Assembly (NCBI GenBank): GCA_963665255.1
Contig: OY762210.1
Location: forward strand, 715,760 to 779,759
Reading direction: 5' to 3'
Length of the DNA stretch: 64,000 bases
Source: Dehalococcoidia bacterium
GTDB taxonomy: Bacteria > Chloroflexota > Dehalococcoidia > Lucifugimonadales > UBA1123
A program made the translations under genes and the position numbers. Numbering within the stretch: position 1 is the first letter of the stretch; every line of letters begins with the position of its first letter. Shown here one piece after another: positions 8,394 through 27,853 of the stretch. The notes under the pieces are model-generated. The model ran no database searches, was not told the DNA's origin, and was given only the letters and a program-made list of their open reading frames with translations.

Positions 8394-11300
8394 TCATATC
8401 CTGGATAGCAGCAGCCTATGTCGCAGCCGGGAGAGCTCCTGCGATATCGACAGAGAGACCCGGTGTATAACGACCAGCCTCACCGCGTAGCCCGCCCAGG
8501 CAAGTCCAAGCAGAGACAGCAGGACCATCACCCAGAGGGAGAGTCTCCATCCGGACTCGCCAGCCTCCATCGGCAGCGCAGTCTCACTCTCAGACTTGCC
8601 TTCAGTCGCGGACTCGTCGTCCCTCAAAGACCCTGCCGGTCCTGGCGTGGGCTCCAACGGCGGCAGCGCCAGCTCAGGCTGATGGGACTCCACCGGCTCG
8701 ATGGCGAATCCTACGACCACCTTCGACACGCCGTCAGACTGCTGAGTGAGGTTGCGGTACCTACGCTCAGAAAGCGGCGACATCAGGGGTCCAGCAGAGG
8801 CCGGCTCAGGCGTGCCGGGGGGGACGGGCTCATTCACCTTCGCGGGGACCGGCGAGAGATCAGGCTTCGGTGGTTCTGTCACCGACACGTTGAACACGCT
8901 GGCGGCCCGCAAGCCGCTGGGATCGGTTGCGTCGACCTCGAGTGACACTGAACCCGCGCCCACGGGTGCTATCGACAGAGTGTTTCCATCGACCATTACT
9001 ACAGCCAAGTCTGCATTGGACTCTCCGGCAATCCCGTAGGTCAGCGTGTCGCCGTCCGGGTCGGTGAAGAACCTGTCCAGGTCCAGGGTCCACGGCGCCT
9101 GCCCGGTAGTCAGATCGACCGACGGAATCGCCACGGCAGCCACCGGAGCCTCGTTCACGTCGTCTACGCTCACCGAAACGTCGATCTGTGACGACAGCGC
9201 GGGTTCCCCATCGTCCGTGGCAGTTATCGTCAGAGTGTGGACGTTGCTCCGGTCAGATCTGCTCGGAGCCTCGAAGTCCAGGGCGCCCACAGAGGACAGG
9301 ATACCCTCACTGTCGATTTCGAATCCGTGTGCGTCAGGCCCTGTAAGAGACCATGTGATTACTCCCCTCTCGGGGTCGTCAACTTCGTACCGTGCGATTT
9401 CTCCGGTGTGGTTCTCGGGCGCCGACAGCTCGACGTCACCACTAATCGCTCCGAGTTCGTTGACCTGCGTGACAGTGACGTACGAGTTCAGGACGTCATC
9501 TCTTCTTGGCGACCCAACTACCTCCGCATGAACCTGGACCCAGTAGGTATCGCCTTCCAAGGTGGATAGGTTCTCGTAGTCAGGTGGGCTCCTGAAGCTC
9601 AGGACCCCGTCGCTGGAGATCGTGAACGGTCTTCTCTCGCCGTACACTGACCAGATCACTTCCTCCACGTCCGAGTCCTCGATGGTGTACCTGGCAACTG
9701 CGTCTGTGCCGTTCTCCGGGTAATCCAGACTCACAGGTCCCAGAATTCGCAGTGTCGGGCCGCTGCTGTACGTTGAGTGTGAGTCATCACTTCGACTGGC
9801 GCCGCCTGAGCCTGAGCCACCACTGCTGGTGGTGGGTGTGGTTGGAGGAGTCGGCTTCTGCGGCGGTTGGGGAGCCGGGTCGGGCAGAATCAGTCCAGCG
9901 TCGAACCTGCTGAATGCCCTGATGTTGTACACGGTAATCTTTCCGCCACTGGACGTCCGCGTCAGGCCATAGCACTCAGAGCTCCCGCGGGGGTCGGCGC
10001 ACTGTGGAATCTGGTCCCATGATGTGTCGGTCGGGCCATGGCCCTTCCACATTGTGAAGCTGTCACTGGCGAGGTCTGCCTGGACTGCGTCGTACTGCTG
10101 CTGGGTAAGGGATACACTCAGCGTCGCAGCAGAGTCGAGACTCTCCTCTATCGACTCGGCGCCCAGGTCGAACAGGTCGACCAGGATGCATAGACGCCGT
10201 TCGCCAACAGGGGACTGGCCGCCGCAGTCGTTGCTCAGGGCGTCGATGGCTACCTGGAAGAACTGGTCCTTGGCTCCGGCCGGGAAGGTTACCGACAGAC
10301 TGCCGTCGCTGGAGATGAGAGTGGTCTCGACCTCGGGGTCGACGATATGCACGGTCTCCGTGTTCGTGCGTGGCAGCACGGGTCTGTAGACTATCACCCT
10401 GAACTGTTCTCGGATGCCCGGAGTGTCTGAGACTGTGAGAGTGGTGGTCGCCACGCCGATTCCCTGAGGCGTGATAACCAGGTAGCCCTCGGAGACCTCG
10501 ACGGTCGCGATGCTGGTGCCCGATATAGTGACCTGGTATGGCGGATATCCGTCGTCGGAGTCGGAGAAGTGGTCCGACAGGAGTATCTCCCTGTCTCCGC
10601 CGTTGATCGGGACGAACTGCCTCGGGATGGACTGAAGCAGAGTCGTTCGGCTGCTGGTAGCCCCCGAACCATCGCTGGTGACGGTGATGGTCACGTCGAT
10701 GGCGTCGTCAGTCGCGGTGTCCGCGTTGCCGTCGGCGTCTTTGCCGTCGCTGGCTGACACGGTCACCGAGTAGCTGGACTTGCTGGCCCGGTCCAATGCG
10801 GACTTCGTCGTCAGTTGGCCGGTGGAGGTGGCGATACTGAATGACGAGGCGTCACTTCCGCTCAACGAGTATGTGAGCGCATCGCCCTCTGGGTCCGTGG
10901 CTTCTACCGGCGCGCCAATGTTTTCGCCTGTGCCCGTTCCATCGGCCGCACTTCGAGCGGTGCTGCTGCCAGCGAACTGAGGACGCTCGTTGACGTTGGT
11001 CACCGTGACCGTCACGACCAGTGTGACCGTGTTGGTCCCATCGGACGCCTCAACCGTTACGTGGTACACATTGTCTTTATCGGCATCGGTAGGGTCTTCG
11101 AAGTCAGGCCCGGCGTTGAAACTGAGATCGCCTCTAATGATCGAGAAGACGGCGCCGTCGGTCCCCGACAGGGACCAGACTATTTGGCCGTTTTCGGGGT
11201 CGGTCGCGGTGTAGGTTGCAACTGGGCCTGTGGCATTCTCGGCGTATGCCAGTGTGGTATCTCCGGTCAGGGTTGGCGGTTGGTTAGACGGCGGATTATT

Positions 11301-12770
11301 CTGTGGAGGCTGTTGAGGTGGTTGCTGTGACGTGGAAGCGTCGTCGTCTGCGACGTTCACTGTTGCCGATGCTGGCGAGCCGACGGTGTAGCCAGAGCCG
11401 CTCTGCACCGTGGCCGTCACCGACCCGTCGGCTTCGTCTACATTGTCGTCACTCGTCGTTATGGTGTAGGTCGTGGTAGCCCCACTGACGCTGACCGTGG
11501 CTGTGCCCACCGCTCCGAAGCTGCCGCTCTGAGACACCCCCACATTGACGGTGATCGGGCTGGCAGGGGCCGGATTCGCGCTGATGGTGAAGGTGGCCGT
11601 GCCGCCCTCGGTAATGCCGCTTCCTGCGGTGATGGTGACTTCCGGCACATCGTCATCCGACACCGCTACCGTCCCCGATGCTGGCGAGCCGACGGTGTAG
11701 CCAGAGCCGCTCTGCACCGTGGCCGTCACCGACCCGTCGGCTTCGTCTACATTGTCGTCACTCGTCGTTATGGTGTAGGTCGTGGTAGCCCCACTGACGC
11801 TGACCGTGGCTGTGCCCACCGCTCCGAAGCTGCCGCTCTGAGACACCCCCACATTGACGGTGATCGGGCTGGCAGGGGCCGGATTCGCGCTGATGGTGAA
11901 GGTGGCCGTGCCGCCCTCGGTAATGCCGCTTCCTGCGGTGATGGTGACTTCCGGCACATCGTCATCCGACACCGCTACCGTCCCCGATGCTGGCGAGCCG
12001 ACGGTGTAGCCAGAGCCGCTCTGCACCGTGGCCGTCACCGACCCGTCGGCTTCGTCTACATTGTCGTCACTCGTCGTTATGGTGTAGGTCGTGGTAGCCC
12101 CACTGACGCTGACCGTGGCTGTGCCCACCGCTCCGAAGCTGCCGCTCTGAGACACCCCCACATTGACGGTGATCGGGCTGGCAGGGGCCGGATTCGCGCT
12201 GATGGTGAAGGTGGCCGTGCCGCCCTCGGTAATGCCGCTTCCTGCGGTGATGGTGACTTCCGGCGTAGGCGGAGAATCCTTAATCGTAATAGTAGCAGAT
12301 AGTGTTTTGACCTGATTTTGGCCGTCGTAGAATCTCACGCACAGGTTCTTTGGTTGCTGCAGCGTGACAGTCGCTGTCTCGTCATCTTCCACATGATTGT
12401 CCGTCCGAGAATAAAAATGGAGGCCAACTGTAGACCCTTCTTTTAAGAAGGTCATAGATCCATAGGAGGCCGGCTGTCCATCAAGTGGTGGCCGAGTTTG
12501 GTAATCTACATAAGGTCTCGCAATCCCCTGCTCTTCGTAGAAATAGTCCCCGTCCACTTTGAATTCAATTTTACAATGATCCATCAGAGTCACTCCATTA
12601 GGCAGGTACAGGTATAGGAGGGCATTTTGTCCCTCGAATATAGTCGTACCAGCATCACCTAATCGTGCCTCAGGCCCTTGAGTAGAGGCCTCTGCGGTGA
12701 TTGAGGAAAAAGCAAAGACGACCGCAAGAATCAAGAGGACTGGATACAGTTTAGTAAGTGGGATGTACAA
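8394..12770 (-). CDS. giant secreted/anchored surface protein with Calx-beta-like and cadherin-like repeats
   Basis: 1458 aa. N-terminal signal-like LYPVLLILAVVFAFSSITAEA. Three 103-aa Calx-beta-like units (…TATFTISANPAP…DDNVDEADGSVTATV…VSDDD). Cadherin-like units ending VNERPQF / VNEAPVA. Pro-rich linkers. C-terminal TM WRLSLWVMVLLSLLGLAWAGYAV. Confidence 0.8.
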   Translation of the reverse strand: MYIPLTKLYPVLLILAVVFAFSSITAEASTQGPEARLGDAGTTIFEGQNALLYLYLPNGVTLMDHCKIEFKVDGDYFYEEQGIARPYVDYQTRPPLDGQPASYGSMTFLKEGSTVGLHFYSRTDNHVEDDETATVTLQQPKNLCVRFYDGQNQVKTLSATITIKDSPPTPEVTITAGSGITEGGTATFTISANPAPASPITVNVGVSQSGSFGAVGTATVSVSGATTTYTITTSDDNVDEADGSVTATVQSGSGYTVGSPASGTVAVSDDDVPEVTITAGSGITEGGTATFTISANPAPASPITVNVGVSQSGSFGAVGTATVSVSGATTTYTITTSDDNVDEADGSVTATVQSGSGYTVGSPASGTVAVSDDDVPEVTITAGSGITEGGTATFTISANPAPASPITVNVGVSQSGSFGAVGTATVSVSGATTTYTITTSDDNVDEADGSVTATVQSGSGYTVGSPASATVNVADDDASTSQQPPQQPPQNNPPSNQPPTLTGDTTLAYAENATGPVATYTATDPENGQIVWSLSGTDGAVFSIIRGDLSFNAGPDFEDPTDADKDNVYHVTVEASDGTNTVTLVVTVTVTNVNERPQFAGSSTARSAADGTGTGENIGAPVEATDPEGDALTYSLSGSDASSFSIATSTGQLTTKSALDRASKSSYSVTVSASDGKDADGNADTATDDAIDVTITVTSDGSGATSSRTTLLQSIPRQFVPINGGDREILLSDHFSDSDDGYPPYQVTISGTSIATVEVSEGYLVITPQGIGVATTTLTVSDTPGIREQFRVIVYRPVLPRTNTETVHIVDPEVETTLISSDGSLSVTFPAGAKDQFFQVAIDALSNDCGGQSPVGERRLCILVDLFDLGAESIEESLDSAATLSVSLTQQQYDAVQADLASDSFTMWKGHGPTDTSWDQIPQCADPRGSSECYGLTRTSSGGKITVYNIRAFSRFDAGLILPDPAPQPPQKPTPPTTPTTSSGGSGSGGASRSDDSHSTYSSGPTLRILGPVSLDYPENGTDAVARYTIEDSDVEEVIWSVYGERRPFTISSDGVLSFRSPPDYENLSTLEGDTYWVQVHAEVVGSPRRDDVLNSYVTVTQVNELGAISGDVELSAPENHTGEIARYEVDDPERGVITWSLTGPDAHGFEIDSEGILSSVGALDFEAPSRSDRSNVHTLTITATDDGEPALSSQIDVSVSVDDVNEAPVAAVAIPSVDLTTGQAPWTLDLDRFFTDPDGDTLTYGIAGESNADLAVVMVDGNTLSIAPVGAGSVSLEVDATDPSGLRAASVFNVSVTEPPKPDLSPVPAKVNEPVPPGTPEPASAGPLMSPLSERRYRNLTQQSDGVSKVVVGFAIEPVESHQPELALPPLEPTPGPAGSLRDDESATEGKSESETALPMEAGESGWRLSLWVMVLLSLLGLAWAGYAVRLVVIHRVSLSISQELSRLRHRLLLSRI
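11334..12260 (-). repeat. 3 x 309-bp in-frame tandem repeat inside the surface-protein gene
   Basis: The same strings recur at +309 nt (ctctgcaccg at 11401/11710/12019). Shadow ORFs 11459-11656 and 11768-11965 are identical. Nucleotide identity appears perfect from ~11368 to 12260. Confidence 0.9.
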
Positions 12771-14701: not shown

Positions 14702-15199
14702 TCAGGGTATGGGTCCCCTAGAATAGCCGCAGCGTCTGCTGCTCCGCCTCTGCCGCCTCCGTCCCGGCACTCGTGTCCCGCGCCTCCTCTCGCCCGCGCC
14801 GGTCCCGGCGACTGGCCGGTGGAGTGGGCCGAGAATAACCGGGGTGCTTCGGAGTCTCCTCCCACCTGGCTCTCGCCCTTCGACCACCGCCAGTATATCC
14901 TGCGCCAGCCCCGATATTTCCCGGTCGTCGAAGGTCTCGATGTGCGGATCGCAGGAGGGACGCTGCACCCCGATGGTTGCCATGCCTCCCCTGATGGATA
15001 CGACGACCTTCAGGTCCTCCGGTGCGTCGGTTTGCGACTCGGCGTCGTCAGAACCCTGGTTGTGCTGTTCGGCCCTGTCCTTGGACTCCTCCTCTTCCGC
15101 AGCCGGGGAAGCCGTGTCGTCCGGCGCATCTCCGAAGGGGCTCCCATCGGCGCCCGGGGCGTCGGAGCGGGTAGATTCAGTTCCGTTCTCGTCAGGCAT
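14702..15199 (-). CDS. acidic hypothetical protein (ICE)
   Basis: Start set at MPDENGTE (RBS GGAGAT). Acidic N-terminal half, then VVVSIRGGMATIGVQRPSCDPHIETFDD. The C-terminal 55 aa are Arg-rich, and another frame reads more protein-like, so a frameshift is possible. Confidence 0.45.
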   Translation of the reverse strand: MPDENGTESTRSDAPGADGSPFGDAPDDTASPAAEEEESKDRAEQHNQGSDDAESQTDAPEDLKVVVSIRGGMATIGVQRPSCDPHIETFDDREISGLAQDILAVVEGREPGGRRLRSTPVILGPLHRPVAGTGAGERRRGTRVPGRRRQRRSSRRCGYSRGPIP

Positions 15200-15242: not shown

Positions 15243-15635
15243 CTAGGCCGCCATCCTCGACGACCCTCTCCTGATCTCGCCGAGGGTCGTCGGCTTCCAG
15301 TAGAGGTCGCGCTCCACGGCGGGAACGCCGCCGAACACGGTGGCCTCGGCCATCTCCGAAAGATCGAAGTACCCCAGTTCCGTCTCGAACCCCTCGACGA
15401 GGCCGAAGCAGGTTCCGGTCTCCGCATCCCATTCCGTGATGTACCAGGTCCAGTTGGCATAGGGGCTGAACAGCTTCACCCTTGCAACGACAGCGTCGGG
15501 GTCGTCCGCTCCGTCATTGGCGTACAGGGGCGGGATGGTGTCGGCAAGCTCCTTCGTCATCAGCTTGTGCCTGCGGAGCCCGCTGTGATTGTCCTGCCAG
15601 ATCGTGGTCGTGGTGGTGCCGTTGTTGTCAGACAT
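15243..15635 (-). CDS. DUF2958-family protein
   Basis: 130 aa. VKLFSPYANWTWYITEWDAETGTCFGLVEGFETELGYFDLSEMAE...VERDLYWKP matches the DUF2958 signature common on conjugative elements (recalled from memory). Confidence 0.7.
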   Translation of the reverse strand: MSDNNGTTTTTIWQDNHSGLRRHKLMTKELADTIPPLYANDGADDPDAVVARVKLFSPYANWTWYITEWDAETGTCFGLVEGFETELGYFDLSEMAEATVFGGVPAVERDLYWKPTTLGEIRRGSSRMAA

Positions 15636-15682
15636 GGTTTCTCCTCTCTTATTCGTTCTTTGGGTTCGTCCATGTGCGCCGA

Positions 15683-16483
15683 TCACTCGGCGTAGGTCCC
15701 CACCGTCCGCTCCACCGCCTCCGGCGTGACGTAGGTGGGTGTGACCGTGCCCAGGTCCATGTCCAGGTAGAGGGCCATGAAGGGGCAGGTGCCCGCCACC
15801 ATGCGGCGCACCACCTGGAGCACCAGGGAGGCCATCATCTGGTTGATGGTGGGGTCCTGGTCGGTGAGGTCGAGGGCGGCCGCGCAGTCCACGTCCGGCG
15901 GCCTGGTCGAGACCGCCGTCAGCAGGTCGGGCCGCTGGAGCGTGGGCGCCGGGGCGAGGTAGCAGGTCTCGCCCGAGAAGGCTGGCTCGTCCCAGCTCAC
16001 GTTGCCGGAGACGTTGCCCACCAGCACCTGTCCCCAGTTGGTGTCGTTGCCCGCGTCGATGAGCCACCGTCGCGGGTCGCCCGGCAGGCACTCCGCCATC
16101 GCCTTTCGTGCGAGGGCGTTGTCGGCGCAGCCGATGATGAGGCTTTCTCTGTAGGCGGGCAGGCCAGGGTAGCCGTGCTCGTGGGGCTGGTCGTTGTACT
16201 CCTTGAATGGGTAGACCGAGTAGCCGACGGGCCGCCCGTAGGCTTTGGCCAGCCGGTCTGCGAGGACCTGGCTCTTGAAGCCGCCCACGTCGCCAGGGTA
16301 GAAGTTCTGGCGGAGCAGGTTGTGGGGCTCCACCCGGTCGTGGTCGACCAGGACGATGTTGGCCTGCCGTCCCTGGAAGAGTCGGCAGAGGCCCTCGGCA
16401 ACGAAGCCGCCCGTCCCGCCGCAGCCGACCACCGTGATCCATGGGTCGTCCAGCAGGAACGCGTTGTCCAGGTAGTAGGGCAT
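15683..16483 (-). CDS. PRTRC-system ThiF-family E1-like adenylyltransferase
   Basis: 266 aa. Rossmann motif VVGCGGTGG, then VDHDRVEPHNLLRQNF and IIGCADN. Sits immediately after the JAB and E2-like genes. Confidence 0.85.
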   Translation of the reverse strand: MPYYLDNAFLLDDPWITVVGCGGTGGFVAEGLCRLFQGRQANIVLVDHDRVEPHNLLRQNFYPGDVGGFKSQVLADRLAKAYGRPVGYSVYPFKEYNDQPHEHGYPGLPAYRESLIIGCADNALARKAMAECLPGDPRRWLIDAGNDTNWGQVLVGNVSGNVSWDEPAFSGETCYLAPAPTLQRPDLLTAVSTRPPDVDCAAALDLTDQDPTINQMMASLVLQVVRRMVAGTCPFMALYLDMDLGTVTPTYVTPEAVERTVGTYAE

Positions 16484-16486
16484 CTC

Positions 16487-17125
16487 TCAGTCACCTCCTT
16501 GTATTGGATTGGCTGCCTCCGGCTCCTCGCCCACCAGCCGGAGGCCGGGGTCCGGGCCGTCGAAGACCTGCGACCACTCCACCGGGGCGAAGTGGCCGTA
16601 GACGCCGACCCGGAGGCTCAGCTCGGGCCGGTCGGTGTCGAGGCGTCCGGCGACGCCGTAGATGCGGAACCCCTGCTCGTCGCCGTCGTCGGTCTTCGAG
16701 AAGAAGGCGCGGGAGCTTCCGTGGGAGTGGAACTCGGCCACCACCTCTGCGGGAGGCCGGTATTCGAGGCGCGTGGCCGTCCCTTCCTGTTCGGGGACCA
16801 CCATCCGGTAGGAGCGCCCGTCCCACCTGACGGCGAAGAACCGCTCGGTGTGCGGGGCGTCCTCGAACCAGAGCAGCCCGATCTCGAAGAGCCGGGCCGG
16901 GATGGGGCCGTGGGCAAGCTCCACCTTCCCGGTCACGGGAGCCAGCCCCCGCACCTCGCAGGGGGCCACGAGGATCCTGGCCGTCAGGTGGGCGCTCTCG
17001 GACTGGACGTAGAGGCCGCCCGCTCCGAGCACGTAGTCGAAGCCGATGCCCTGCGCTCCGGTCAGCCCGTCCTTGTTATTGACGAGGTAGCCCACCGGAC
17101 CCCGTGTGTCGCTATCGATAGCCAT
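16487..17125 (-). CDS. JAB/MPN metallopeptidase (PRTRC protein A-like)
   Basis: Start set at MAIDSD. Complete JAMM motif EFHSHGSSRAFFSKTDDGDE (H-x-H-x7-S-x2-D). Confidence 0.8.
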   Translation of the reverse strand: MAIDSDTRGPVGYLVNNKDGLTGAQGIGFDYVLGAGGLYVQSESAHLTARILVAPCEVRGLAPVTGKVELAHGPIPARLFEIGLLWFEDAPHTERFFAVRWDGRSYRMVVPEQEGTATRLEYRPPAEVVAEFHSHGSSRAFFSKTDDGDEQGFRIYGVAGRLDTDRPELSLRVGVYGHFAPVEWSQVFDGPDPGLRLVGEEPEAANPIQGGD

Positions 17126-17822
17126 AGCCCCGTCTCCCCTGGGAGGCCGCGATGGCCTGGGCCACCGTGCACTGGGGAACAAGGTCCTCAACCGGGTACT
17201 CAGTCTTTCCATCCAGCTCCTCCCATAGCGCGTACAGGTTGTCGGGGTGCTTCTTCGAACGCTCCCGCGTGTCCCCGGTGCAGGAGAAGTAGGACTGGAA
17301 GAAGGACTCCGGTATCAGCCCCACCTCCTCGGGGAACCGGTGGCTTCCGGGGCAGACCCGCCCGTCCCGGAAGACGTTGAAGGCGGGCATCCGGTAGAGC
17401 CGGTCATCGGGGTCGGTCGGCCTGTCCAGGGCCGCATAGACCCAGGGGGCGCGGCCCGGCGAGCAGACGAATACCAGCCCCGGCATGGGGAGCCGGAGCC
17501 GGGCGGGGGCCTTGAACGCCTCCCGTTGCGGGGCCACCGGCCAGACCTGCGGCGCCCTCCAGAGGGCCACCATCTGCCCGGTCTCGCCCTGGTTCCACCA
17601 GAGAGCGTCCTGGGGCAGCAGCCCCGAGGAGAACCCCAGGTGCTGGGTGAACACGTTGGCGATCTCGTCCGCCGAGACGGTCCTCACCCAGGTTGAGTCG
17701 CCCTCGAAGCCCCGCAGCAGGAGCGTCTCGTCGTAGACCTCCAGTTGGAGGTTCAGCTTGTCCCTGGGCATCTCATCCGGTCCGGGCAGGGACCACTCGG
17801 TCTTCTCCGCGTCAGTTGTCAT
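17112..17822 (-). CDS. PRTRC protein B-like, prokaryotic E2 (UBC-fold)-like candidate
   Basis: 236 aa. MPAFNVFRDGRVCPGSH resembles the E2 HPN...G.iC active-site region. Position between the Ubl and JAB/E1 genes matches PRTRC cassettes. Confidence 0.6.
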   Translation of the reverse strand: MTTDAEKTEWSLPGPDEMPRDKLNLQLEVYDETLLLRGFEGDSTWVRTVSADEIANVFTQHLGFSSGLLPQDALWWNQGETGQMVALWRAPQVWPVAPQREAFKAPARLRLPMPGLVFVCSPGRAPWVYAALDRPTDPDDRLYRMPAFNVFRDGRVCPGSHRFPEEVGLIPESFFQSYFSCTGDTRERSKKHPDNLYALWEELDGKTEYPVEDLVPQCTVAQAIAASQGRRGYGYR

Positions 17823-18582
17823 GGTCGTCGTCCTCCTTTCCTTGTTCTTGTTCGGGGAGCCGGGGCAGGACGTCGTCCAGCATCTTGGCGAAGCGGGCCG
17901 GAAGGTCCTCCTCCAGCCAGTCGGCTAACGTGAATACCGAGTCCATCAGGGCGCTGGCCCTCCGCCACTCCTCCGTGCCCTCGGCGATGATCTCGTCGTC
18001 CCAGGGGTCGCAGAACCCGTCATAGTTGCCGTCCTCGTAGCAGTGGTCGAGGAAGAAGTTGCCCGTCTCGGCGAAGACCCAGGCGGCGGCCTTCGCCGCC
18101 CCCTCGAACCGGGTATCCTTCACCGCCTCGGTGAGGCTTTCGACGGGTATGCCGCCCTGGGGAATCCTCTCCAGGGTCTCCTTGGGGATGCGCTCGGCGG
18201 CGGACTCAAGCCACGCCGTCCGTATCTCGTCGGACTCCCCGTAGAAGGAGTCCGGGGGGTTGGCCAGCAGGAGCAGGGCCGATATGCCGTCCCGGTAGCC
18301 GTTCCACAGCTCGTGGAGGCCGTCGTAGCCGAAGCCCATCAGGTCGAAGGGGATGCCCCTGCGCAACCAGCTCCAGGGGGGTTCTTCCCCCTCCCATTCC
18401 ATCCAGTATTCGATGAACGGTCCGTAGAGAGGGAAGTGACGCTCGCCGAAGAGACTGGCGAAACGCTCCACCCTGGTGCGCACGTCGGGGGCCGAGAGCG
18501 CCGCCTCCGCCTCGTTGGGGAAGAGGCGGCGCACCAGTCCCATGAACCATGCGTAGTCGTCGGCGTAGCCGATCACGGTCAC
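17812..18582 (-). CDS. PRTRC-associated hypothetical protein (possibly the C-terminal part of a frameshifted PRTRC-F-like gene)
   Basis: Protein-like sequence runs from ...LSGLSQLLLRRPPLLRELVTVIGYADDYAWFMGL to an acidic C-terminus. No ATG. GTG 18582 is used as a provisional start. The upstream 200 aa of the 468-aa track ORF are Arg-rich overlap with other genes. Confidence 0.5.
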   Translation of the reverse strand: MTVIGYADDYAWFMGLVRRLFPNEAEAALSAPDVRTRVERFASLFGERHFPLYGPFIEYWMEWEGEEPPWSWLRRGIPFDLMGFGYDGLHELWNGYRDGISALLLLANPPDSFYGESDEIRTAWLESAAERIPKETLERIPQGGIPVESLTEAVKDTRFEGAAKAAAWVFAETGNFFLDHCYEDGNYDGFCDPWDDEIIAEGTEEWRRASALMDSVFTLADWLEEDLPARFAKMLDDVLPRLPEQEQGKEDDDHDN

Positions 18583-18632
18583 CAGCTCCCGCAGCAACGG
18601 CGGACGCCGCAGGAGCAGTTGGGAAAGACCGC

Positions 18633-18863
18633 TCAGGAGCGCCGGGGCCGCAGCTGCCACCGCAGCGCCTCCTTGAGCCGACCCGTGGCCGAGGCGTAGT
18701 CCTGCGCCTGGGCGCAGGCCATTTCGACATCCTTCTGGCGTGCGGCCGCGGCGTCCAGGTCGAGGGCGCCGTCGGGCCGTGTGAGCTCCGCCGTGAGCTC
18801 GGTTATCTTGAGGTCCGTAGGCGGTGTGACCGCCAGCAGACCGGCGAAGGTCCGGTTGTCCAT
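18633..18863 (-). CDS. 76-aa hypothetical protein (possibly the N-terminal part of the same gene as 17812-18582)
   Basis: MDNRTFAGLLAVTPPTDLKITELTAELTRPDG... Its last residues (LRPRRS*) look out of frame, while the adjacent frame continues with protein-like sequence. Confidence 0.45.
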   Translation of the reverse strand: MDNRTFAGLLAVTPPTDLKITELTAELTRPDGALDLDAAAARQKDVEMACAQAQDYASATGRLKEALRWQLRPRRS

Positions 18864-18875
18864 CGGATGCCCTCC

Positions 18876-19073
18876 TTACCGGGTGAAGGCCCCCTTGGTG
18901 CCCACCCGCCGTTGGAACTCGTAGATGGTGTCCTCGCCCCTGGTCGTCTCCTTGACCGAGGCGTTGGCGATCTCGCCGTAGAAGTCGCTGAGCGTCGCCT
19001 TCACCTGGTCGACGGTCATCTCGGGGTCGGGGTCCGGGAACTCGCGGTCGTCGTATACGAATACTCTTGCCAT
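18876..19073 (-). CDS. small ubiquitin-like (beta-grasp) protein, PRTRC protein C-like
   Basis: 65 aa: MARVFVYDDREFPDPDPEMTVDQVKATLSDFYGEIANASVKETTRGEDTIYEFQRRVGTKGAFTR. Size, position and pattern fit prokaryotic Ub-like PRTRC_C. RBS AAAAGGAGAAG. Confidence 0.6.
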   Translation of the reverse strand: MARVFVYDDREFPDPDPEMTVDQVKATLSDFYGEIANASVKETTRGEDTIYEFQRRVGTKGAFTR

Positions 19074-19166: not shown

Positions 19167-21521
19167 CTAGCGTCCCGCGCCGACCGGCTCTTCCTCGCGC
19201 TCCATGCTCATCGCCCACTCGAACATCGAGAGGGTCGCGGGCCGGGGCTTGCGGCGCTTCGTCTCGACAGGCTCGTCCGCCATGAACTCCGCCCAGGAGA
19301 ACAGCGACTGCTGCGCCCCGGCCTCGTCGTGGTGACCGTTGCCGTTGTCCGGGGCTGGCGCGTGGACGTTGCCACTCCCGTTGGCGGGCACGTTGTCGCT
19401 TGGTACAAGCTCGACCGTCGGTCCGATGGGGAGAGCCTCGTGGTGTCTGTTTCCGTTGACGCCGATGGTCTCCGGTTCCACCGGCTTCCAGTCTTTGTCC
19501 ACCAGCAGTTCCTCAGCGTCGGACTCCGCGTCGCGCGCCTCGGCGAAGGCCGACTCCACCGTTTCAGCGTCGTCCTCGCCGCTGACGATCTTCCGCGCCA
19601 GCGCCATCATCAGGTCGTCGCCGTCGTCCCCGTATGCGGCCAGACCGTCCTCCGGCAGCTCACCCTCGACGGCCAGGGAGCTCTGGAGCTTCTTCGCCAC
19701 CAGCTTCAGCGCGTCGGCCTGGAGCGTGTTCCGGTAGGACATGTAGACCACCTTGACCGGGCGGGTCTGCCCGATGCGCCACGACCGTCGCGACGCCTGG
19801 CGCATCACGTACACCGAGTAGTCGGTCTCGTACCAGCAGATGGTCGGGAAGTCGATCAGGTCGAGGCCGGTCTGTACCAGGCGCGGGTGGCAGATGAGTA
19901 CGTCCAGACCCTTTTTGACCCTGTCGGCCACCCAAGCCTCCCTCTTGTCGGGCGCAACCGCGTCGGCCTTCATAACCGCCACCCGGAAGCCGTGCCTGGT
20001 GAGGATGTCGTCCATTCGCCCGGTGATGTCGCGCGTTCCGGTGTGGGTGACGTACACCAGCACCCTGCGCCCGGCCATCCGCTCGGCGGCCACCAGGTCG
20101 ATGAGCGCCTTCTCCTTCGGGTAGAGGCGCTCCTCAGACAGCGGTGGCACCTGCACGATGACGTCGCCGGTCCTGGGGTCGAACACCGTCTCCCCCCTGG
20201 TGCAGCCGTCCGGGTAGGCGAGGAGGGTTTGCAAGTAGGTTGCCAGCAGCCGCTTGGAGCCGGCCTTGAGCGCCTTCGCCAGCTCCTCCTTCAGAGTCTC
20301 GAACACGCGTCTGTAGGCGCTGCGCTGGGAGTAGCCGGTGCCGTCCTCCTCCGTGTCCATTGAAGAAAGCAGCACCTGCTCGGTGTAGTCAGGCAGCCCG
20401 GAGGCCACGTCCGCCAGCCTGAGGAAGACGGTGTTGCCGATGATGTGGAACAGCGCCGAGGGAACGAGTCCCGGCTTCTCCCGCACCACCTTTCGGAACT
20501 TGCGGCGTCTGCTGTTGCGCCCGTCCTCGACCGCGCCGTCGTCGGGCCTGCCGATGGTGTGCTCCTCGAAGCCGTACCGCTTGATCCAGCGTCCCTCGTC
20601 CGATCGTCCGAACTCGGTCCTGATCTCGGGCGAGAACCTGTACAGCAGGTGGAAGAGCGTGCTGGCATAGCCTCCCATGAGCGTCCCGGACAGGCTGAGG
20701 GACTTGCCGCAGACATCCGCCAGGATGCCCGCGGCGATGCCCTGGGCTGAGCCGCGCCCCTTGTACTCGTGCACCTCGTCCCCGATGAGCAGGTCGAAGA
20801 AGCCCTTCATCCGGTGCTTGACGTAGTCTGCGAGCGGGTAGCGCTTCGGCCCGGCCTTGTCGGCCTGCCAGAGAGGGGAGGTGCAGCTTGCGCAGTAGCG
20901 CTTTCTGCGGTTGAGCGCGGCGTCCGTCAGCGGCACGCCGTCCTTGTCCACGACCTGCGCGGTGCAGTCCGGGCAGCATGGCACCCTGAACGGCTCCTTC
21001 GTCTCCGCGTCCCGCACCAGCCTGCCCTTCGAGACCGCCCACCGATGTATCACGGACGCCTTCCAGCGGTACGACAGCTTCGCTCGTTCCCGGCTCATGA
21101 CCGCGAACAGCGGGCCGGAGCCGGCAGACAGGCGGAGGTTCTCCAGGTCGGTGATGGACGTTACGATGGCGGCTCGTGCGAACGGGACCGTCTGCTCCAC
21201 CTCCCGCTTCCACTTCTTCGTCAGGTGCGGCGGGCAGAGGATCAGCACCCTCTCGAAGCCCGCCATGTGCGCAGCGGCGGCTCCGATGAAAGTCTTGCCG
21301 GTGCCCATCTCCCCGACGACCGTGGTGCCCCGGTGTGTTTCGAGGGACAGGGCCGCGCCCCTGATGGCGTCGGCCTGGGCTCCCAGCGGCTTGCGCAGCA
21401 GGTGGGGCAGACTGCCGCCGTCACCCGAGGGGCGGTACAGCGGTGGGTAGGACTCGACCACCCTTCGGGCGATGGCGTCCTTGAAGGTGTCGATGAACTC
21501 TCCGAGGTTCATTTCTGGCAT
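19167..21521 (-). CDS. SNF2/RAD54-family helicase with zinc-ribbon insert
   Basis: 784 aa. Motif I GEMGTGKT, motif II DEVHEYKG, motif VI QASRRSWRIGQTRPVKV. Insert CCPDCTAQ...YCASCTSP. Confidence 0.85.
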   Translation of the reverse strand: MPEMNLGEFIDTFKDAIARRVVESYPPLYRPSGDGGSLPHLLRKPLGAQADAIRGAALSLETHRGTTVVGEMGTGKTFIGAAAAHMAGFERVLILCPPHLTKKWKREVEQTVPFARAAIVTSITDLENLRLSAGSGPLFAVMSRERAKLSYRWKASVIHRWAVSKGRLVRDAETKEPFRVPCCPDCTAQVVDKDGVPLTDAALNRRKRYCASCTSPLWQADKAGPKRYPLADYVKHRMKGFFDLLIGDEVHEYKGRGSAQGIAAGILADVCGKSLSLSGTLMGGYASTLFHLLYRFSPEIRTEFGRSDEGRWIKRYGFEEHTIGRPDDGAVEDGRNSRRRKFRKVVREKPGLVPSALFHIIGNTVFLRLADVASGLPDYTEQVLLSSMDTEEDGTGYSQRSAYRRVFETLKEELAKALKAGSKRLLATYLQTLLAYPDGCTRGETVFDPRTGDVIVQVPPLSEERLYPKEKALIDLVAAERMAGRRVLVYVTHTGTRDITGRMDDILTRHGFRVAVMKADAVAPDKREAWVADRVKKGLDVLICHPRLVQTGLDLIDFPTICWYETDYSVYVMRQASRRSWRIGQTRPVKVVYMSYRNTLQADALKLVAKKLQSSLAVEGELPEDGLAAYGDDGDDLMMALARKIVSGEDDAETVESAFAEARDAESDAEELLVDKDWKPVEPETIGVNGNRHHEALPIGPTVELVPSDNVPANGSGNVHAPAPDNGNGHHDEAGAQQSLFSWAEFMADEPVETKRRKPRPATLSMFEWAMSMEREEEPVGAGR

Positions 21522-21664
21522 CTCCTTCCTTGTTGCCGGAGAGTGACGCCGCGACCCGCCCCCTGTGGGAGCGTTCGGTCTCCGGCAACGCCCCCAGGCG
21601 GTTGCTTGAATGTGCGAGGCGCCTCAGGTGGCTGGCCTCGTTGTGTGCGGCTCAGCTGAGCCGT

Positions 21665-21859
21665 CTACGCGGCGTTCGGGAGGGACTCCCCGAGCCCCTG
21701 GTCGTCGTAGCAGCGTCCCCGCAGGTGGTATGTCTTCAACGGTGAGGCGACTGCCCTGCCGTCGATGATGTCCACGGATGCGGTCTGCATGAACGGCTCC
21801 CCGGGAGAGATCGGCTGACCGCACCGGGAGCACGCTTCGAGCGTCATCGTAGTCTGCAT
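21665..21859 (-). CDS. 64-aa hypothetical protein
   Basis: Start at MQTTMTLE with RBS GAGGAAAGGA. Contains CSRCGQ. Lies inside a longer shadow ORF. Confidence 0.4.
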   Translation of the reverse strand: MQTTMTLEACSRCGQPISPGEPFMQTASVDIIDGRAVASPLKTYHLRGRCYDDQGLGESLPNAA

Positions 21860-21915
21860 TCTTCTTGTCCTTTCCTCACATGTAGGGGTTCGCCTTAATA
21901 CATCCGGTAAGAGAA

Positions 21916-21953
21916 AGGCCCCGCCGGTCTCCGGTGGTGGAGTGGCGGGGCCT
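21916..21953 (-). terminator. hairpin downstream of the methyltransferase gene
   Basis: AGGCCCCGCC-18 nt-GGCGGGGCCT. On the minus strand it is followed by TTTCTCTT. Confidence 0.5.
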
Positions 21954-21984
21954 CGCGGATGTTCGGTACGGAGTCTCGGACCGT

Positions 21985-23025
21985 CTATGCCGCAATGTCG
22001 GTTATCGCGCCGTCTTTCAGGTCGAGGGCGACCACAGTGGTCCTGAGCTTCTCGCGGTGGACTTCCTTCTGGAGGGTCTCCTCCACGAGCACCATCTCCT
22101 TGCTGGTGCGGCCCTTGACCAGTATGCGCCGCCCGTCCCCTTCGAGGACGAGGTTGTCCAGGAAGCCCGCTGCAACCAACATCGCCATGTGTCCCCTTCG
22201 CAGGGGCATTAGTGGGCGGGTGCGGCTGTCGCCTGCGGGCCAGAGGGAGTCGGTGATCTCCGTGTTCGCCCACAGCCCCGACCGGCGCGCCTCAGCCACG
22301 GCCGCCACCGGATCGACGGTGCGTGTTGCGAACAGCACGTCCCCTCCAGGTGTGGTTGGCGCGGTGAAGAACGGGTAGCGGATCCCGCCCAGCCTGTCGA
22401 GGTCCCCGGCCGACCATCTCAGCACCGTCTCCTCGGCGGCCGTGTCCGGCGTGGGGTCTAGCTTCCGGTAGCCCAGGAGCACGACCTGGTCGAAGACCTC
22501 GCGCTCGGGGTCAGGGAAGGCCCAGCAGCGCATCCGTCCGTAGTGGGTGGACAGGTAGCGCGCCGAGACCGCCAGCCGCTGCCTGGGGACGATGAACACC
22601 AGCAGGCCGCCCTCGACGAGGTAGCGCGTACAGTGCGTGAGGAAGGCGTGCTCGACGCGCCTGTCTTCGCCTGAGTCGAAGTCATACGGCGGGTTTAGGT
22701 ACAGTGCGCCGAAGGCGCCGTTCGCAATCGAGGTGGCGAACAGGTCTGCCGAGAGGGCTCGGTCCAGCTTACGCCCCGCCTCCTCGGCCCTCTCCCGGTG
22801 AAGCTCCACGCCGTAGGTGAAGACGGGCAGGCTTCCCCTGCCGCGGAGTTTCTCAGCGAGCTGCGCCACTGCGTCGCCGCCCCCGCAGCAGGGATCGAGG
22901 ATGCGCAGCGTCTCCCCGTTCCTGTAGTAGTTACCGGAGGGGGCGTTTACCAGTCCCGCGATCATCCCCACCACGCGGTCGGGCGTCGGGTAGTAGCCCC
23001 CCTTGGCCTGTGCAGCCAGTCTCAT
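21985..23025 (-). CDS. N6-adenine DNA methyltransferase (NPPY type)
   Basis: Start set at MRLAAQAKGGYYPTP (RBS GAGAGGAGAG). SAM motif ILDPCCGGG and catalytic LYLNPPYD. Confidence 0.75.
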   Translation of the reverse strand: MRLAAQAKGGYYPTPDRVVGMIAGLVNAPSGNYYRNGETLRILDPCCGGGDAVAQLAEKLRGRGSLPVFTYGVELHRERAEEAGRKLDRALSADLFATSIANGAFGALYLNPPYDFDSGEDRRVEHAFLTHCTRYLVEGGLLVFIVPRQRLAVSARYLSTHYGRMRCWAFPDPEREVFDQVVLLGYRKLDPTPDTAAEETVLRWSAGDLDRLGGIRYPFFTAPTTPGGDVLFATRTVDPVAAVAEARRSGLWANTEITDSLWPAGDSRTRPLMPLRRGHMAMLVAAGFLDNLVLEGDGRRILVKGRTSKEMVLVEETLQKEVHREKLRTTVVALDLKDGAITDIAA

Positions 23026-23285
23026 GTCGTCTCTCCTCTCTCGGTTTCGGTTGTCGTATTCGGCCCGAACCGGCAGGGTCCGGGCTTGCAGAAGTGGCAG
23101 TTCCACCTCAGTCCATCGGGGTAGGTGTACTGCTCCACGGTTAGCGCGAGGAACACCACCTTCCCACCGCATGACGCGCAGTGGTAGGTGGCCCCGGCGT
23201 GAATGTCGATGCTCCGCTCCTTCGTCCCAGCGAAGGGATCGTGGCAGTTTGGGCAGCTGAAGACCAGGGTCGGCTCTGCCGTCAT
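23022..23285 (-). CDS. 87-aa multi-CxxC zinc-ribbon protein
   Basis: CPNCHD..., HCASCGG..., NCHFCKPGPC. Stop overlaps the methyltransferase start. Confidence 0.5.
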   Translation of the reverse strand: MTAEPTLVFSCPNCHDPFAGTKERSIDIHAGATYHCASCGGKVVFLALTVEQYTYPDGLRWNCHFCKPGPCRFGPNTTTETERGETT

Positions 23286-25660: not shown

Positions 25661-26752
25661 CTAGTTGACCCGTACCGACTCCGACTCGCTCTCTGTCACT
25701 ATCCCGGCTCTGGTCTCAGGGTCGAGCAGCGAGTTGAGCCTCGGGTGGTTGACCGAGTACCTCGTCGTGCTGACGAGGCTGACCGTACGGCCCCCGATCT
25801 TCACCTTGGTGTCCGTCTGCCCCCGCATCCACGCCTTGAGGGTGTCGAGCGCGGCGCGCTTCGCCTTTCCGGGATCCTTCAGGGCAGCCTGCGCCTTCGT
25901 GTATGCCGCCACCGCGTCCCGCGCCTCGTCGTCGCTCACGTGCTCGATCTCCATAGCCCCGTCATCTTCCACAGCACCCGGCAGGCAGATGTCGAGGAAC
26001 GGGCAGTAGCGGCACTGCCAGTCACCCGCGGAGAAGTCCCGGTCGGGCAGCGCGTCGGGGTCAGGTCCGTTGAGTGAGTGGTGGGCGGCAAGCCCGGCGA
26101 GCCACTCGCAGGCGTCCTGCAACGCCCGCCTAAGCCGGTCTGCCGGAATGACCTCGTGGTCCCACGTCCTGTTTCCGGTGTCCATCGTGACGATTGCGGC
26201 GTCGCGCATCTCCCCGTACAGTCCGAGGGTGTAGAAGGCGGCCTGCGCGACCGATTCGGGGTGGCTGCGCTCAGCTCCGAGAGTCCGCCATCGCTTGAAG
26301 GCGTCCGGCGCGCGGGTCTTTATCTCGACGAGCATCTCGTCGCCGTGCGTGGGAGCGGGAGGCTCATCGTCGAAGAGGAACAGCTGCGGCGCCCGCGTCT
26401 CGTCTTCCGCCAGGGGCATCCGTCCCATCGCGTCGGGGTGTCCGGTCACGATCATGTTCGGACCGATCCTCACGGCGACCTGCCGGGGGTCATGGGGATC
26501 GGCGGCGTCGACCAGCCAGCCTGCTCGCTCCATCGCCCGCACGACCACAGGCTCAAGCGCGTTGCCCGCCTCCATCGCAGTCAGGGACTCCTCGCTCGGC
26601 GGGTTGGTGGGCCGGTAGTCTGTCGCGGCGTGCCAGAGGGCTCGGCGGCAGCTGAGCGCCGCCGAAGCGCGCACCTCGATGTTGCCGTCGTCGTCGAACC
26701 GTGCGGCAGGACGGGAGAACACCTCCGCCCTGTCCATCGTCTGAGTCGTCAT
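25661..26752 (-). CDS. PD-(D/E)xK nuclease, Cas4/RecB-like with C-terminal Cys cluster
   Basis: 363 aa. ...HPDAMG..., MLVEIKTRAP (E-x-K), and C-terminal WQCRYCPFLDIC as in Cas4/AddB-type nucleases. Confidence 0.65.
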   Translation of the reverse strand: MTTQTMDRAEVFSRPAARFDDDGNIEVRASAALSCRRALWHAATDYRPTNPPSEESLTAMEAGNALEPVVVRAMERAGWLVDAADPHDPRQVAVRIGPNMIVTGHPDAMGRMPLAEDETRAPQLFLFDDEPPAPTHGDEMLVEIKTRAPDAFKRWRTLGAERSHPESVAQAAFYTLGLYGEMRDAAIVTMDTGNRTWDHEVIPADRLRRALQDACEWLAGLAAHHSLNGPDPDALPDRDFSAGDWQCRYCPFLDICLPGAVEDDGAMEIEHVSDDEARDAVAAYTKAQAALKDPGKAKRAALDTLKAWMRGQTDTKVKIGGRTVSLVSTTRYSVNHPRLNSLLDPETRAGIVTESESESVRVN

Positions 26753-26768
26753 GTCTCTCGCTCCTGTG

Positions 26769-26818
26769 TCCTGTAAACGGGAAGCGGGGCCGCGCCCGAA
26801 GGAGACGACCCCGCTTCC
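26769..26818 (-). promoter_or_regulatory. conserved intergenic cassette: hairpin + GTTTACAGGA + RBS (copy 1)
   Basis: Minus strand GGAAGCGGGGtcgtctccttcgggcgcggCCCCGCTTCC-cGTTTACAGGA, then RBS and ATGACGAC. About 80% identical over ~75 nt to the copy at 27778-27824. Confidence 0.5.
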
Positions 26819-26839
26819 GATTTCCGATGTACGCGCCGC

Positions 26840-27268
26840 TCATGCAGCGGCACTCATGCCCGTTTCCCGTGCTGCGTCTCCCTGCTCCGCCGCCCTGATG
26901 CGGGTCCTGGATCGAGTCCTGGACAGGCTCTTGAGAACGTGCGCTATGCCGTCGCCGAGTCCCAGGACGGCCACACGGGTGCCGTCCGCCAGCAAGTTGT
27001 AGTACGGCTGCATCTCGGCGATACCCTCGCACTGCTCGATGATCTCCTCGACCGGGGTGCCTCGTCGCAGGTGCAGCGAGATGAGACGGCAGGCAAGCTC
27101 GGTGACCCCGTGCTGGAAGCTGCCGCCCTTGCCGAGGAAGCCGAACACCTCGAACGGCTCGCCGTCCTCGTCCGTAGTGACGGTGACGTACAGGTTGCCG
27201 AACTCCGTGCTCAGCTTCGTGGTCGTACTGGGCAGGCTGCGCGGCCTGGGCCGTGTCGTCTCGCTCAT
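26840..27268 (-). CDS. TSCPD-domain protein
   Basis: Start at MSETT. EVFGFLGKGGSFQHGVTELACRLISLHLRRGTPVEEIIEQCEGI resembles the TSCPD domain (RNR-associated fold). Confidence 0.55.
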   Translation of the reverse strand: MSETTRPRPRSLPSTTTKLSTEFGNLYVTVTTDEDGEPFEVFGFLGKGGSFQHGVTELACRLISLHLRRGTPVEEIIEQCEGIAEMQPYYNLLADGTRVAVLGLGDGIAHVLKSLSRTRSRTRIRAAEQGDAARETGMSAAA

Positions 27269-27765
27269 GTCACCCTCCTCTCCACTGTGCAGAGCGGCAG
27301 CGTCCGGCTGCACTCCACGGCCTCCATCCTGCCGTGGACCCTGACCATCTCCCGGTCTCCCACGAAGGACTCAGCCTCGACGCGCGTGTCGAACCGCTCG
27401 AATGGGTCGGTTGCCAGGCCGCCGAAGAAGGCTATGGCGTGGTAGTGGAGGCCCGGTGGTTGGGAGCGGATGAACGGCAGGGCGGGCGCGTAGCGGTCGA
27501 AATAGCCGGCAACCGTGAGCGCCATCTCCCTATCCCGGTCGTCGCCGATTCCCAGGAGCGTCCTCATTATCGGCTCCTCGCAGTCCTCCTCGGCGAAGCT
27601 TTTGTAAAGCATCACGCCCTGCACGGTGGGGGGCAGTTCATCCCAGCGCTCAGGGCTGAGCTTCAGCCCGCCGTGGCTGGGGGTGGAGACCCTCCAGACG
27701 CCTTCGGCAAGCTCCTCGATGTCTCTTGTCCAGCCCCAGGGTGTGGGGATTACGTTCGTCGTCAT
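27265..27765 (-). CDS. hypothetical protein (TPWG...HGG motif, DUF7007-like from memory)
   Basis: Start at MTTNVIPTPWGWTRD...VSTPSHGGLKLSPERWDELP. 166 aa. Confidence 0.5.
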   Translation of the reverse strand: MTTNVIPTPWGWTRDIEELAEGVWRVSTPSHGGLKLSPERWDELPPTVQGVMLYKSFAEEDCEEPIMRTLLGIGDDRDREMALTVAGYFDRYAPALPFIRSQPPGLHYHAIAFFGGLATDPFERFDTRVEAESFVGDREMVRVHGRMEAVECSRTLPLCTVERRVT

Positions 27766-27777
27766 CGGTCTTCTCCT

Positions 27778-27824
27778 TCCTGTAAACCGAGAGCGGGGCC
27801 GCCCATGAGAGACGAACCCCGCTC
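27778..27824 (-). promoter_or_regulatory. conserved intergenic cassette: hairpin + GTTTACAGGA + RBS (copy 2)
   Basis: Minus strand GAGCGGGGttcgtctctcatgggcggCCCCGCTC-tcgGTTTACAGGAAGGAG...ATGACGACG. Confidence 0.5.
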
Positions 27825-27853
27825 GATTCCGAACCTTTGATGCCACCGGCTTA

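Follow-up and report, generated by a model that had tools for sequence, protein, structure and literature searches.

A PRTRC/type 6d ubiquitin-like conjugation cassette in an integrative and conjugative element of a Dehalococcoidia bacterium

When a full set of genes resembling a ubiquitin-conjugation pathway is found on a bacterial mobile element, to what known kind of system does it belong, does it look functional, and does it serve the element or the cell that carries it? This question is raised by a contig of a Dehalococcoidia bacterium (OY762210.1, assembly GCA_963665255.1), of which we analyzed a stretch of 64,000 nt (positions 715,760-779,759), hereafter called the window. Its minus strand carries genes for a ubiquitin-like protein (Ubl), an E2-like protein, a JAB peptidase and a ThiF-type E1, at the places claimed in an earlier note on this DNA; Pfam and NCBIfam matches confirm all four. 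CBASS Cap2/Cap3, Bil and Bub represent real bacterial ubiquitin-like conjugation, each tied to phage defense. The 6d or PRTRC operons form a Ubl operon family that was predicted in 2006 and that lies on plasmids and integrative and conjugative elements (ICEs), beside replication and transfer genes. Judging from the sequence, we think it on balance probable that the cassette described here is a working PRTRC/6d protein-conjugation cascade and a backbone operon of a Dehalococcoidia ICE, one that aids establishment, replication or survival of the element. Conserved residues argue strongly for the biochemical cascade. Gene context argues, with less force, for the biological role.

Family membership and operon structure

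Profile matches and gene order identify the cassette as the operon type that Iyer, Burroughs and Aravind called 6d in 2006 and that was later named PRTRC (TIGR03735-03742). Operons of this type encode a Ubl that has Gly at its terminus, an alpha-helical protein that diverges fast, an E2-like protein in which a Cys and, farther downstream, a His are conserved, a JAB whose N-domain has conserved Arg and Trp residues, and an E1 (PMC1779556). The cassette proteins were compared with the profile libraries of Pfam, NCBIfam (at curated bit cut-offs), PADLOC and PHROGs. The Ubl exceeds the cut-off of PRTRC_C, and the best NCBIfam matches of the E2-like, JAB and E1 proteins are PRTRC_B, PRTRC_A and PRTRC_ThiF, respectively (scores in Table 1). 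These last three fall below their cut-offs, and hence the proteins are taken as divergent relatives, not equivalogs. The order C, small open reading frame (ORF), F position, B, A, ThiF, together with the sizes of the genes, matches pSTJ1, whose PRTRC locus likewise has an unnamed ORF of 74 aa after the Ubl and a protein of ~280-340 aa before the E2, as well as the distant relatives used here for comparison (loci L087, L088, L089 and L090). The assignment of the four genes to PRTRC and to the predicted prokaryotic Ub operons, made in the earlier note, is thus borne out by the family matches, the pSTJ1 order and the type 6d composition. Bacillus and Alicyclobacillus plasmids bear cassettes of similar order, and one Dehalococcoidia homologue is already called 'PRTRC system protein C' at NCBI.

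With PRTRC/6d at large, the cassette shares a Ubl with a conserved Gly, a Prok-E2_D protein with its Cys, a JAB, a ThiF-type E1, and carriage on a mobile element. It differs from the canonical form in several respects. PRTRC D, E and F gave no match in the ICE genes scanned or in the two cassette genes of no known family, and the ICE genes scanned contain no ParB-type Pfam domain, as the earlier note had said; the Ubl is tailed; in the alignment made, the N-domain of the JAB lacks R-P-W; the 282-aa protein has no detectable similarity to PRTRC_F; and the carrier is an ICE of Chloroflexota that has a serine recombinase. The cassette is a divergent, well-preserved member of a family known since 2006 and no new kind of system, and the finding is an annotation-level recognition of that family. 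The literature that we searched contained no functional study of PRTRC/6d, Prok-E2 (PF14460) or DUF2958, in agreement with the earlier statement that PRTRC function is untested. The clade would be good material for a first one, as it offers hundreds of natural variants, conserved catalytic residues and a marked cleavage site.

A scan of species-representative genomes with the E2-like protein confirmed 176 relatives; locus counts below refer to the best 80 of these 176, nearly all from Dehalococcoidia, SAR202 or Chloroflexota metagenome-assembled genomes. In the window, eight minus-strand genes are tightly packed and follow one another, in the direction of transcription, in the order Ubl, small, mid, E2-like, JAB, E1, DUF2958 and a last gene (Table 1). 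The small and mid genes overlap by 28 nt, mid and E2-like by 11 nt, and E2-like and JAB by 101 nt, while 3 nt separate the JAB stop from the E1 start. An AGGAG-type ribosome-binding site lies 5-9 nt 5′ of every cassette start. Promoter-like and terminator-like sites were looked for on the minus strand between 14.3 and 23.5 kb, and none was found. The ribosome-binding sites, the overlapping genes and the lack of such internal sites together point to a single operon. Close packing in one orientation had been described before and stands, but the earlier description passed over three genes within 15243-19073, those of 76 and 282 codons and that for DUF2958; the conserved unit also reaches beyond 15243, to the last gene.

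Base composition and substitution patterns indicate that these frames are genuine. The cassette region has a G+C content of ~66%, so third-position G+C (GC3) marks coding frames clearly, and GC3 is 0.8-1.0 in exactly the cassette frames. In each of the cassette genes, the ratio of nonsynonymous to synonymous substitution rates (dN/dS) falls within 0.15-0.45, a sign of purifying selection, with values of 0.15 for the Ubl gene and 0.24 for the DUF2958 gene. Given the in-frame GC3, the low dN/dS and the gene order kept in related loci, the cassette is no chance pattern. As far as can be read from their sequences, all four core genes (Ubl, E2-like, JAB and E1) are confirmed as intact.

Catalytic residues, partner proteins and the proposed cascade

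Gly61 (...RRVGTKG) is the last residue of the Ubl domain, and four more residues, AFTR, form a tail behind it. Across the 80 loci, the protein is invariant through G61; the tail beyond differs in sequence and in length (4-10 aa). The annotated PRTRC_C of pSTJ1 ends exactly at ...GTKG and that of Deinococcus gobiensis at ...GRKG. Among the distant relatives, 1 residue follows the same Gly in L088 and 5 residues in L090, and in two others the Ubl is fused directly after ...KG to a longer extension, of 127 aa with DUF6166 in one case (L087:8369-8935) and of 92 aa in the other (L089:8467-8928). These two genes look like natural Ubl-fusion precursors. Because conservation halts at Gly61, where canonical PRTRC_C stops and where relatives add tails or domains, the comparison gives good support to the view that the Ubl is made as a precursor whose C-terminal Gly has to be exposed by cleavage. 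The JAB of the operon is the obvious candidate for a cut after Gly61. This trimming had been suggested from the one Ubl sequence, and the 80-locus comparison, the ends of canonical PRTRC_C and the tailed relatives all strengthen the suggestion. Bub offers an analogy, in that a JAB enzyme, BubCD, is reported to release the Ubl by cutting the BubAB fusion (PMC11601596).

The candidate catalytic residue of the E2-like protein is Cys157, in the motif N149-V-x3-G-x-V-C157-P-G; the translation of this stretch reads FNVFRDGRVCPGSH. A search among 1.84 billion cluster representatives yielded 732 relatives, from which an alignment of 54 full-length sequences (26-62% identity) was made. Conservation of this Cys among homologues, on which the earlier proposal depended, proved nearly complete: Cys157 is kept in 53 of the 54 representatives and in 80/80 loci, and the lone representative without it looks frameshifted in that stretch. 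In the alignment, P146, N149, G154 and C157 hardly vary and G159 does not vary at all. His161 is present in 80/80 loci of this clade, but in only 26/54 sequences across the family, and His192 in 25/54. The spacing of N-V-x3-G-x-V-C is that of HPN...C in eukaryotic E2s. An AlphaFold2 (AF2) model of the protein is confident (pLDDT 90.8) and consists, in order, of an additional sheet of three strands at the N-terminus, a helix, a beta-meander, an extended loop with the Cys, and three helices. By order of elements, the modeled fold is compatible with UBC. The family profile matched PDB sequences only by chance (MgtE), with no E2 among them.

For the JAB and E1, the catalytic motifs described in the earlier note are both in place. 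The JAMM motif of the JAB, HSHGSSRAFFSKTD (H-x-H-x7-S-x2-D), begins at residue 162 and is intact, with Glu123 upstream; among the loci covering these positions, E123 is found in 79/79, and H162, H164, S172 and D175 in 77/77. The Prok-JAB match is barely over its cut-off, and the JAB profile had no match among PDB sequences. The N-terminus can be aligned with those of canonical PRTRC_A proteins, and when four sequences are aligned, S-A-H stands here where the canonical N-domain has R-P-W. From its motif, we propose that the JAB both processes the Ubl precursor and deconjugates. The E1 is a single-domain ThiF-type adenylating enzyme that carries GCGGTGG and DHDRVEPHNLLRQ, the latter fitting DxDxVxxxNLxRQ. 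Five phylum-spanning sequences (Dehalococcoidia, Burkholderia, Leptolyngbya, Deinococcus and Sulfuricystis) and 75-76 loci agree without exception at G20/G22/G25 (the GxGxxG loop), D47, D49, N55, R58, Q59, K70, R77, D121, R126 and C200. The last of these, in a PSCS / VDCA context, is the candidate thioester Cys. The nearest solved relatives of the E1 are UBA3, UBA5, TcdA, Cap2 and ThiF; MoeB is another solved relative.

Between Ubl and E2-like protein lie two genes whose products of 76 and 282 aa match nothing in Pfam, NCBIfam, PADLOC or PHROGs. The 76-aa gene has an in-frame GC3 of 0.83-0.9 and a Shine-Dalgarno (SD) sequence, taaggaggg, upstream. Its product is 73-97% identical in 77 loci and weakly homologous to its equivalent in L087 (E 4e-5), and every relative examined has a gene of 73-95 aa at this position. 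The 282-aa gene begins with GTG, 7 nt after an AAGGAGG, and this start is kept as GTG, ATG or TTG in 70/75 loci; the public gene call (P0391) gives an identical product. L087, L088 and L090 have homologues in the corresponding place (E 1e-24 to 3e-46), and a TGNxxLD...D.W...W motif is conserved. The 282-aa protein diverges fast and sits where type 6d has its alpha-helical protein and PRTRC its F protein. It shows no detectable similarity to PRTRC_F, and hhalign against the PRTRC_F-like protein of pSTJ1 gave a probability of <1%. For neither protein did hmmscan to E 10, BLASTP or hhalign give a link to PRTRC_F or another family. The 282-aa protein is a candidate specificity factor or target.

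Downstream of the E1, the DUF2958 gene keeps its position in the great majority of related loci and is predicted to be a co-transcribed neighbor of the cassette. The last gene encodes a protein with an acidic, low-complexity N-terminal part and a nearly invariant C-terminus, ...QQTL(R/K)LF. In the window it is frameshifted near 14879, where tblastn with the intact protein of a close relative (L004:12610-13146) finds two joined frames; it is intact in 69/75 related loci. The C-terminus resembles a sliding-clamp-binding motif. In pSTJ1 and in a plasmid of Alicyclobacillus, the clamp gene dnaN adjoins a PRTRC-type cassette. In L087, an HNH/RRXRR endonuclease gene (L087:11609-12967) stands between JAB and ThiF of an otherwise collinear cassette.

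Taken together, these genes suggest the following cascade. The 65-aa Ubl would be produced as a precursor, and the JAMM peptidase would cut past Gly61, removing the AFTR tail. The E1 would then use ATP to adenylate the exposed Gly carboxylate, probably with formation of a thioester on Cys200, and the Ubl would be handed to Cys157 of the E2-like protein and joined to a lysine of the target. No E3 is encoded, so target choice may depend on the 282-aa and 76-aa proteins; two conserved partners of unknown family could explain such choice without an E3. The same JAB might be able to reverse the mark.

The characterized bacterial systems share parts of this scheme. Bil (BilABCD, types I and II) likewise has separate genes for Ubl, E2, JAB and E1, needs an exposed Gly, lacks an E3, and would share the cysteine-thioester chemistry expected here. 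However, BilD is a multidomain IAD-AAD-CYS protein (PMC10557695) whereas the E1 here has a single domain of 266 aa, the E2 here belongs to another Pfam family, Ubl, E2 and JAB are without PADLOC match, and the setting is the backbone of a conjugative element, not a defense island. Bub (6E/DUF6527) is also a bacterial operon of Ubl, E1, E2 and peptidase, and its Ubl fusions have counterparts in L087 and L089. Its E1 and E2 lack catalytic cysteines and work through oxyester intermediates, and its operon encodes the DUF6527 serine protease (PMC11601596); in contrast, Cys157 of the E2 and Cys200 of the E1 are conserved here, and a search for DUF6527 gave no match. Type II CBASS likewise has an E1 adenylation domain, in that the E1 described here matches Cap2 in its nucleotide-binding region, and it also has a JAB. 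It differs in that Cap2 is an E2-E1 fusion that conjugates the CD-NTase, with no dedicated Ubl, and the CD-NTase and effector are absent from the cassette here.

The host element and a proposed role of the cassette

The cassette is carried by an ICE of two arms. The left arm, co-oriented with the cassette, has genes of the establishment type and encodes a DnaG-type primase, DUF7007, TSCPD, SSB, RadC, an annealase, an exonuclease, a methylase and a helicase. The right arm, on the plus strand, encodes VirB6-like protein, type IV secretion system (T4SS) pilin, VirB4, coupling protein and a Replic_Relax relaxase, followed by an HTH/Peptidase_M78 pair of the ImmR/ImmA type and a large serine recombinase (Resolvase/Recombinase). 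No outer-membrane T4SS parts were seen among the ICE genes scanned, which supports a monoderm-style element. The earlier note was right about the style of the element; a monoderm host, however, is not new for this family, as Bacillus cereus and B. thuringiensis are listed for type 6d along with cyanobacteria and Bacteroides (PMC1779556). Past the last operon gene, homology among related loci stops within 0-100 bp, which places the cassette at the left extremity of the ICE.

Synteny across related loci extends from SSB to the last gene, and the position of the cassette is fixed in nearly all 80 ICE copies. Between related loci, the cassette is ~80-91% identical, compared with ~60-75% for the flanking RadC, SSB and methyltransferase. 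Distant cassettes have SSB, primase, dnaN, DUF6094 methylase and helicases as neighbors, and the pair of DUF6094 and helicase recurs near the cassette in L087 and L090. With the E2-like protein as query, tblastn matched 54 plasmid records, but none of 50,697 GenBank phage records, and a scan of IMG/VR viral contigs with the E2-like protein and P0229 gave no relatives. The methylase-SNF2 dyad has been described as an entry-phase anti-restriction module, and RadC is discussed in the same context (PMC5512222).

How might the cassette act in such a setting? We favor a role in establishment, in which, after transfer, the cassette would modify a protein of the element or the host such that the element establishes, replicates or survives host defenses. 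We favor it because the cassette is fixed in the ICE family, is more conserved than its neighbors and lies beside DNA-entry genes, and because distant relatives keep the same company, PADLOC gives no match, and plasmids, but no phages, are matched. The cassette is probably not host-protecting antiphage cargo.

It is also conceivable that the cassette is antiphage defense cargo, carried by the ICE because the host benefits. We consider this unlikely, yet a serious possibility, because all characterized relatives are immune systems: those bacterial operons of Ubl, E1, E2 and JAB that have been characterized function in immunity, which is also the prediction for other families (PMC11601596, PMC10557695). 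Iyer et al. offered protection against invading replicons as an option (PMC1779556). The location at the extremity of the ICE would suit cargo, and the neighboring helicase and methyltransferase weakly match ZorD, DpdE and mad2 in PADLOC. Against this, the PADLOC defense models match none of the Ubl, E2, JAB, 76-aa and 282-aa proteins, and no CapW/BrxR or CapH/CapP regulator adjoins the cassette. Its presence and position are fixed in the ICE family, unlike those of variable cargo, its neighbors across phyla are replication, recombination and transfer genes, and the E1 is minimal, unlike the IAD-AAD-CYS BilD.

A third explanation, which we judge distinctly less likely again, is an addiction or regulatory module. 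Here E1 and E2 on one side and JAB on the other would control how stable or active a protein of the element is (relaxase, replication or partition factor, or repressor) and thereby govern copy number, maintenance or excision of the element. The canonical PRTRC cassette is by definition linked to a ParB homologue, and several genomes contain two to three related ICE copies, both of which count for this explanation. An addiction-like system whose activities run in opposite directions was a suggestion of Iyer et al. (PMC1779556). ParB, PRTRC_D and PRTRC_E were not found in the ICE genes scanned, however, and the sequence gives no pointer to a toxic activity; such a module is also hard to tell from the establishment role. 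Lastly, sulfur-carrier pathways with a single-domain ThiF/MoeB-type E1, a small beta-grasp partner and a JAMM trimming enzyme do exist, as reviewed by Iyer et al., and ThiF and MoeB are among the solved E1 relatives, but a chemistry in which the E1 thiocarboxylates the Ubl (as for ThiS/MoaD, CysO-Mec+ and QbsE-QbsD) and the JAB merely exposes or releases its C-terminus is very improbable in view of a separately encoded E2-like protein whose Cys, in an N-x8-C motif, is nearly invariant, an E1 that lacks a rhodanese domain, and a mobile-element setting with no biosynthetic genes near the cassette.

Several points weigh against a conjugation cascade that serves the element. The literature searched contained no 6d/PRTRC biochemistry and no conjugation target. 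The characterized relatives (CBASS Cap2/Cap3, Bil and, by context, Bub) are all tied to antiphage immunity (PMC11601596), and the cassette appears to occupy the outermost edge of the ICE, a common location for cargo. The role itself is read from gene context. The folds give further reason for caution. That the 236-aa protein is UBC-like, as the earlier note proposed, agrees with the Prok-E2_D profile and the N...C motif, but Foldseek of the confident model against PDB gave a best E of 0.42 and no E2 among the top 50. With hhalign, N149/C157 align onto N77/C85 of human UBE2D2, UBE2N and UBC9, with the same spacing of 8 residues, as a local match only, of 18 columns at a probability of 49.6%. 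The 65-aa protein was proposed to be a beta-grasp protein, and the Prok_Ub profile agrees; its AF2 model, with strands and helix in the order strand-helix-strand-strand, reached a pLDDT of 59.5, a poor value due to a shallow alignment of near-identical sequences. Foldseek matches of a model of such low confidence are meaningless and carry no information, and the Ubl profile had no match among PDB sequences. The putative beta-grasp fold is thus drawn from the Pfam profile and the order of secondary-structure elements only. With neither fold confirmed by these checks, the UBC and beta-grasp assignments rest on Pfam profiles, the active-site motif and secondary-structure order, the same basis as in 2006.

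A broader idea, tentative and on the whole doubtful, is that PRTRC/6d in general is a backbone function of mobile elements and not immunity, expressed with entry-phase genes and tagging a protein of host or element for establishment or escape from defense. Under this idea, the tagged protein could be a replication factor; the sliding clamp is one candidate, since the last operon gene has a C-terminus resembling a clamp motif and dnaN occurs beside other cassettes. If the backbone reading is true, this would be the first case in which a bacterial pathway of ubiquitin-like conjugation works to the advantage of a mobile element itself.

Further features of the element and the window

Table 1. Positions of the cassette genes, the host element and its other mapped features in the window.
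Feature	Position	Strand	Length	Evidence or remark
Ubl	18876-19073	-	65 aa	Prok_Ub E 5e-15; PRTRC_C (TIGR03738) 50.4 bits (cut-off 45.95)
Small ORF	18633-18863	-	76 aa	GC3 in frame; SD; conserved position
Mid ORF	17812-18660	-	282 aa	GTG start; homologues at same position
E2-like	17112-17822	-	236 aa	Prok-E2_D E 8e-16; PRTRC_B 62.9 bits (cut-off 131.45)
JAB	16487-17212	-	241 aa	Prok-JAB 25.9 bits (cut-off 25); PRTRC_A 55.7 bits (cut-off 101.8)
E1	15683-16483	-	266 aa	ThiF E 3e-12; PRTRC_ThiF 96.1 bits (cut-off 144.75)
DUF2958 gene	15243-15635	-	130 aa	DUF2958 E 2.9e-10
Last operon gene	14718-15199	-		Frameshifted in window; tblastn with intact L004 protein
Host ICE	14650-50740		~36 kb	Approximate limits; left limit is loss of homology
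Methylase-helicase pair	19167-23172	-		Upstream of cassette; syntenic in related loci
SNF2-like helicase	19167-21521	-		ResIII and Helicase_C
DUF6094 methyltransferase	21985-23172	-		DUF6094 E 9e-28
Cas4/RecE-like exonuclease	25661-26839			Co-oriented with cassette
Rad52-family annealase	27854-29095			Co-oriented with cassette; SSB in same set
tRNA-Asn	50668-50742			Opposite strand to serine recombinase ORF

In the left arm, the exonuclease, SSB and annealase form a recombination set (25661-29095), with the DnaG-type primase beside it. In the divergent intergenic region between the two arms, a 46-nt direct repeat occurs twice (32522-32623), with 87% identity between the copies, and these may be operator or oriT-related sites. 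At the right end, the large serine recombinase ORF (49091-50742 region) overlaps the tRNA-Asn gene with its 3′ end, and this tRNA site is probably where the ICE integrated. Direct repeats of att type were looked for at the ICE ends and none was convincing; a serine recombinase is not expected to leave such repeats.

Some single Dehalococcoidia genomes have two or three diverged copies of the ICE, with ~80-94% identity between their E2-like proteins: L002, L010 and L015 in one case (OY760104.1), and L038, L069 and L077 in another (CBDBNU01). In these multi-copy ICEs, the synonymous substitution rate (dS) is ~0.3 for the cassette, versus ~0.6-0.7 for flanking genes. One distant cassette, L089 (GCA_016934645.1, JAFGSL010000119.1), lies between an integrase/ParA/primase block and terminase/MuF-like genes, a prophage-like setting.

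Two repeat-bearing features lie outside the ICE. On its left, 8394-12770 encodes a secreted protein of 1458 aa with near-identical internal repeats, cadherin-like by eye, and on its right, a 66-nt tandem repeat (51548-51679) falls inside an ORF at 51.5 kb.

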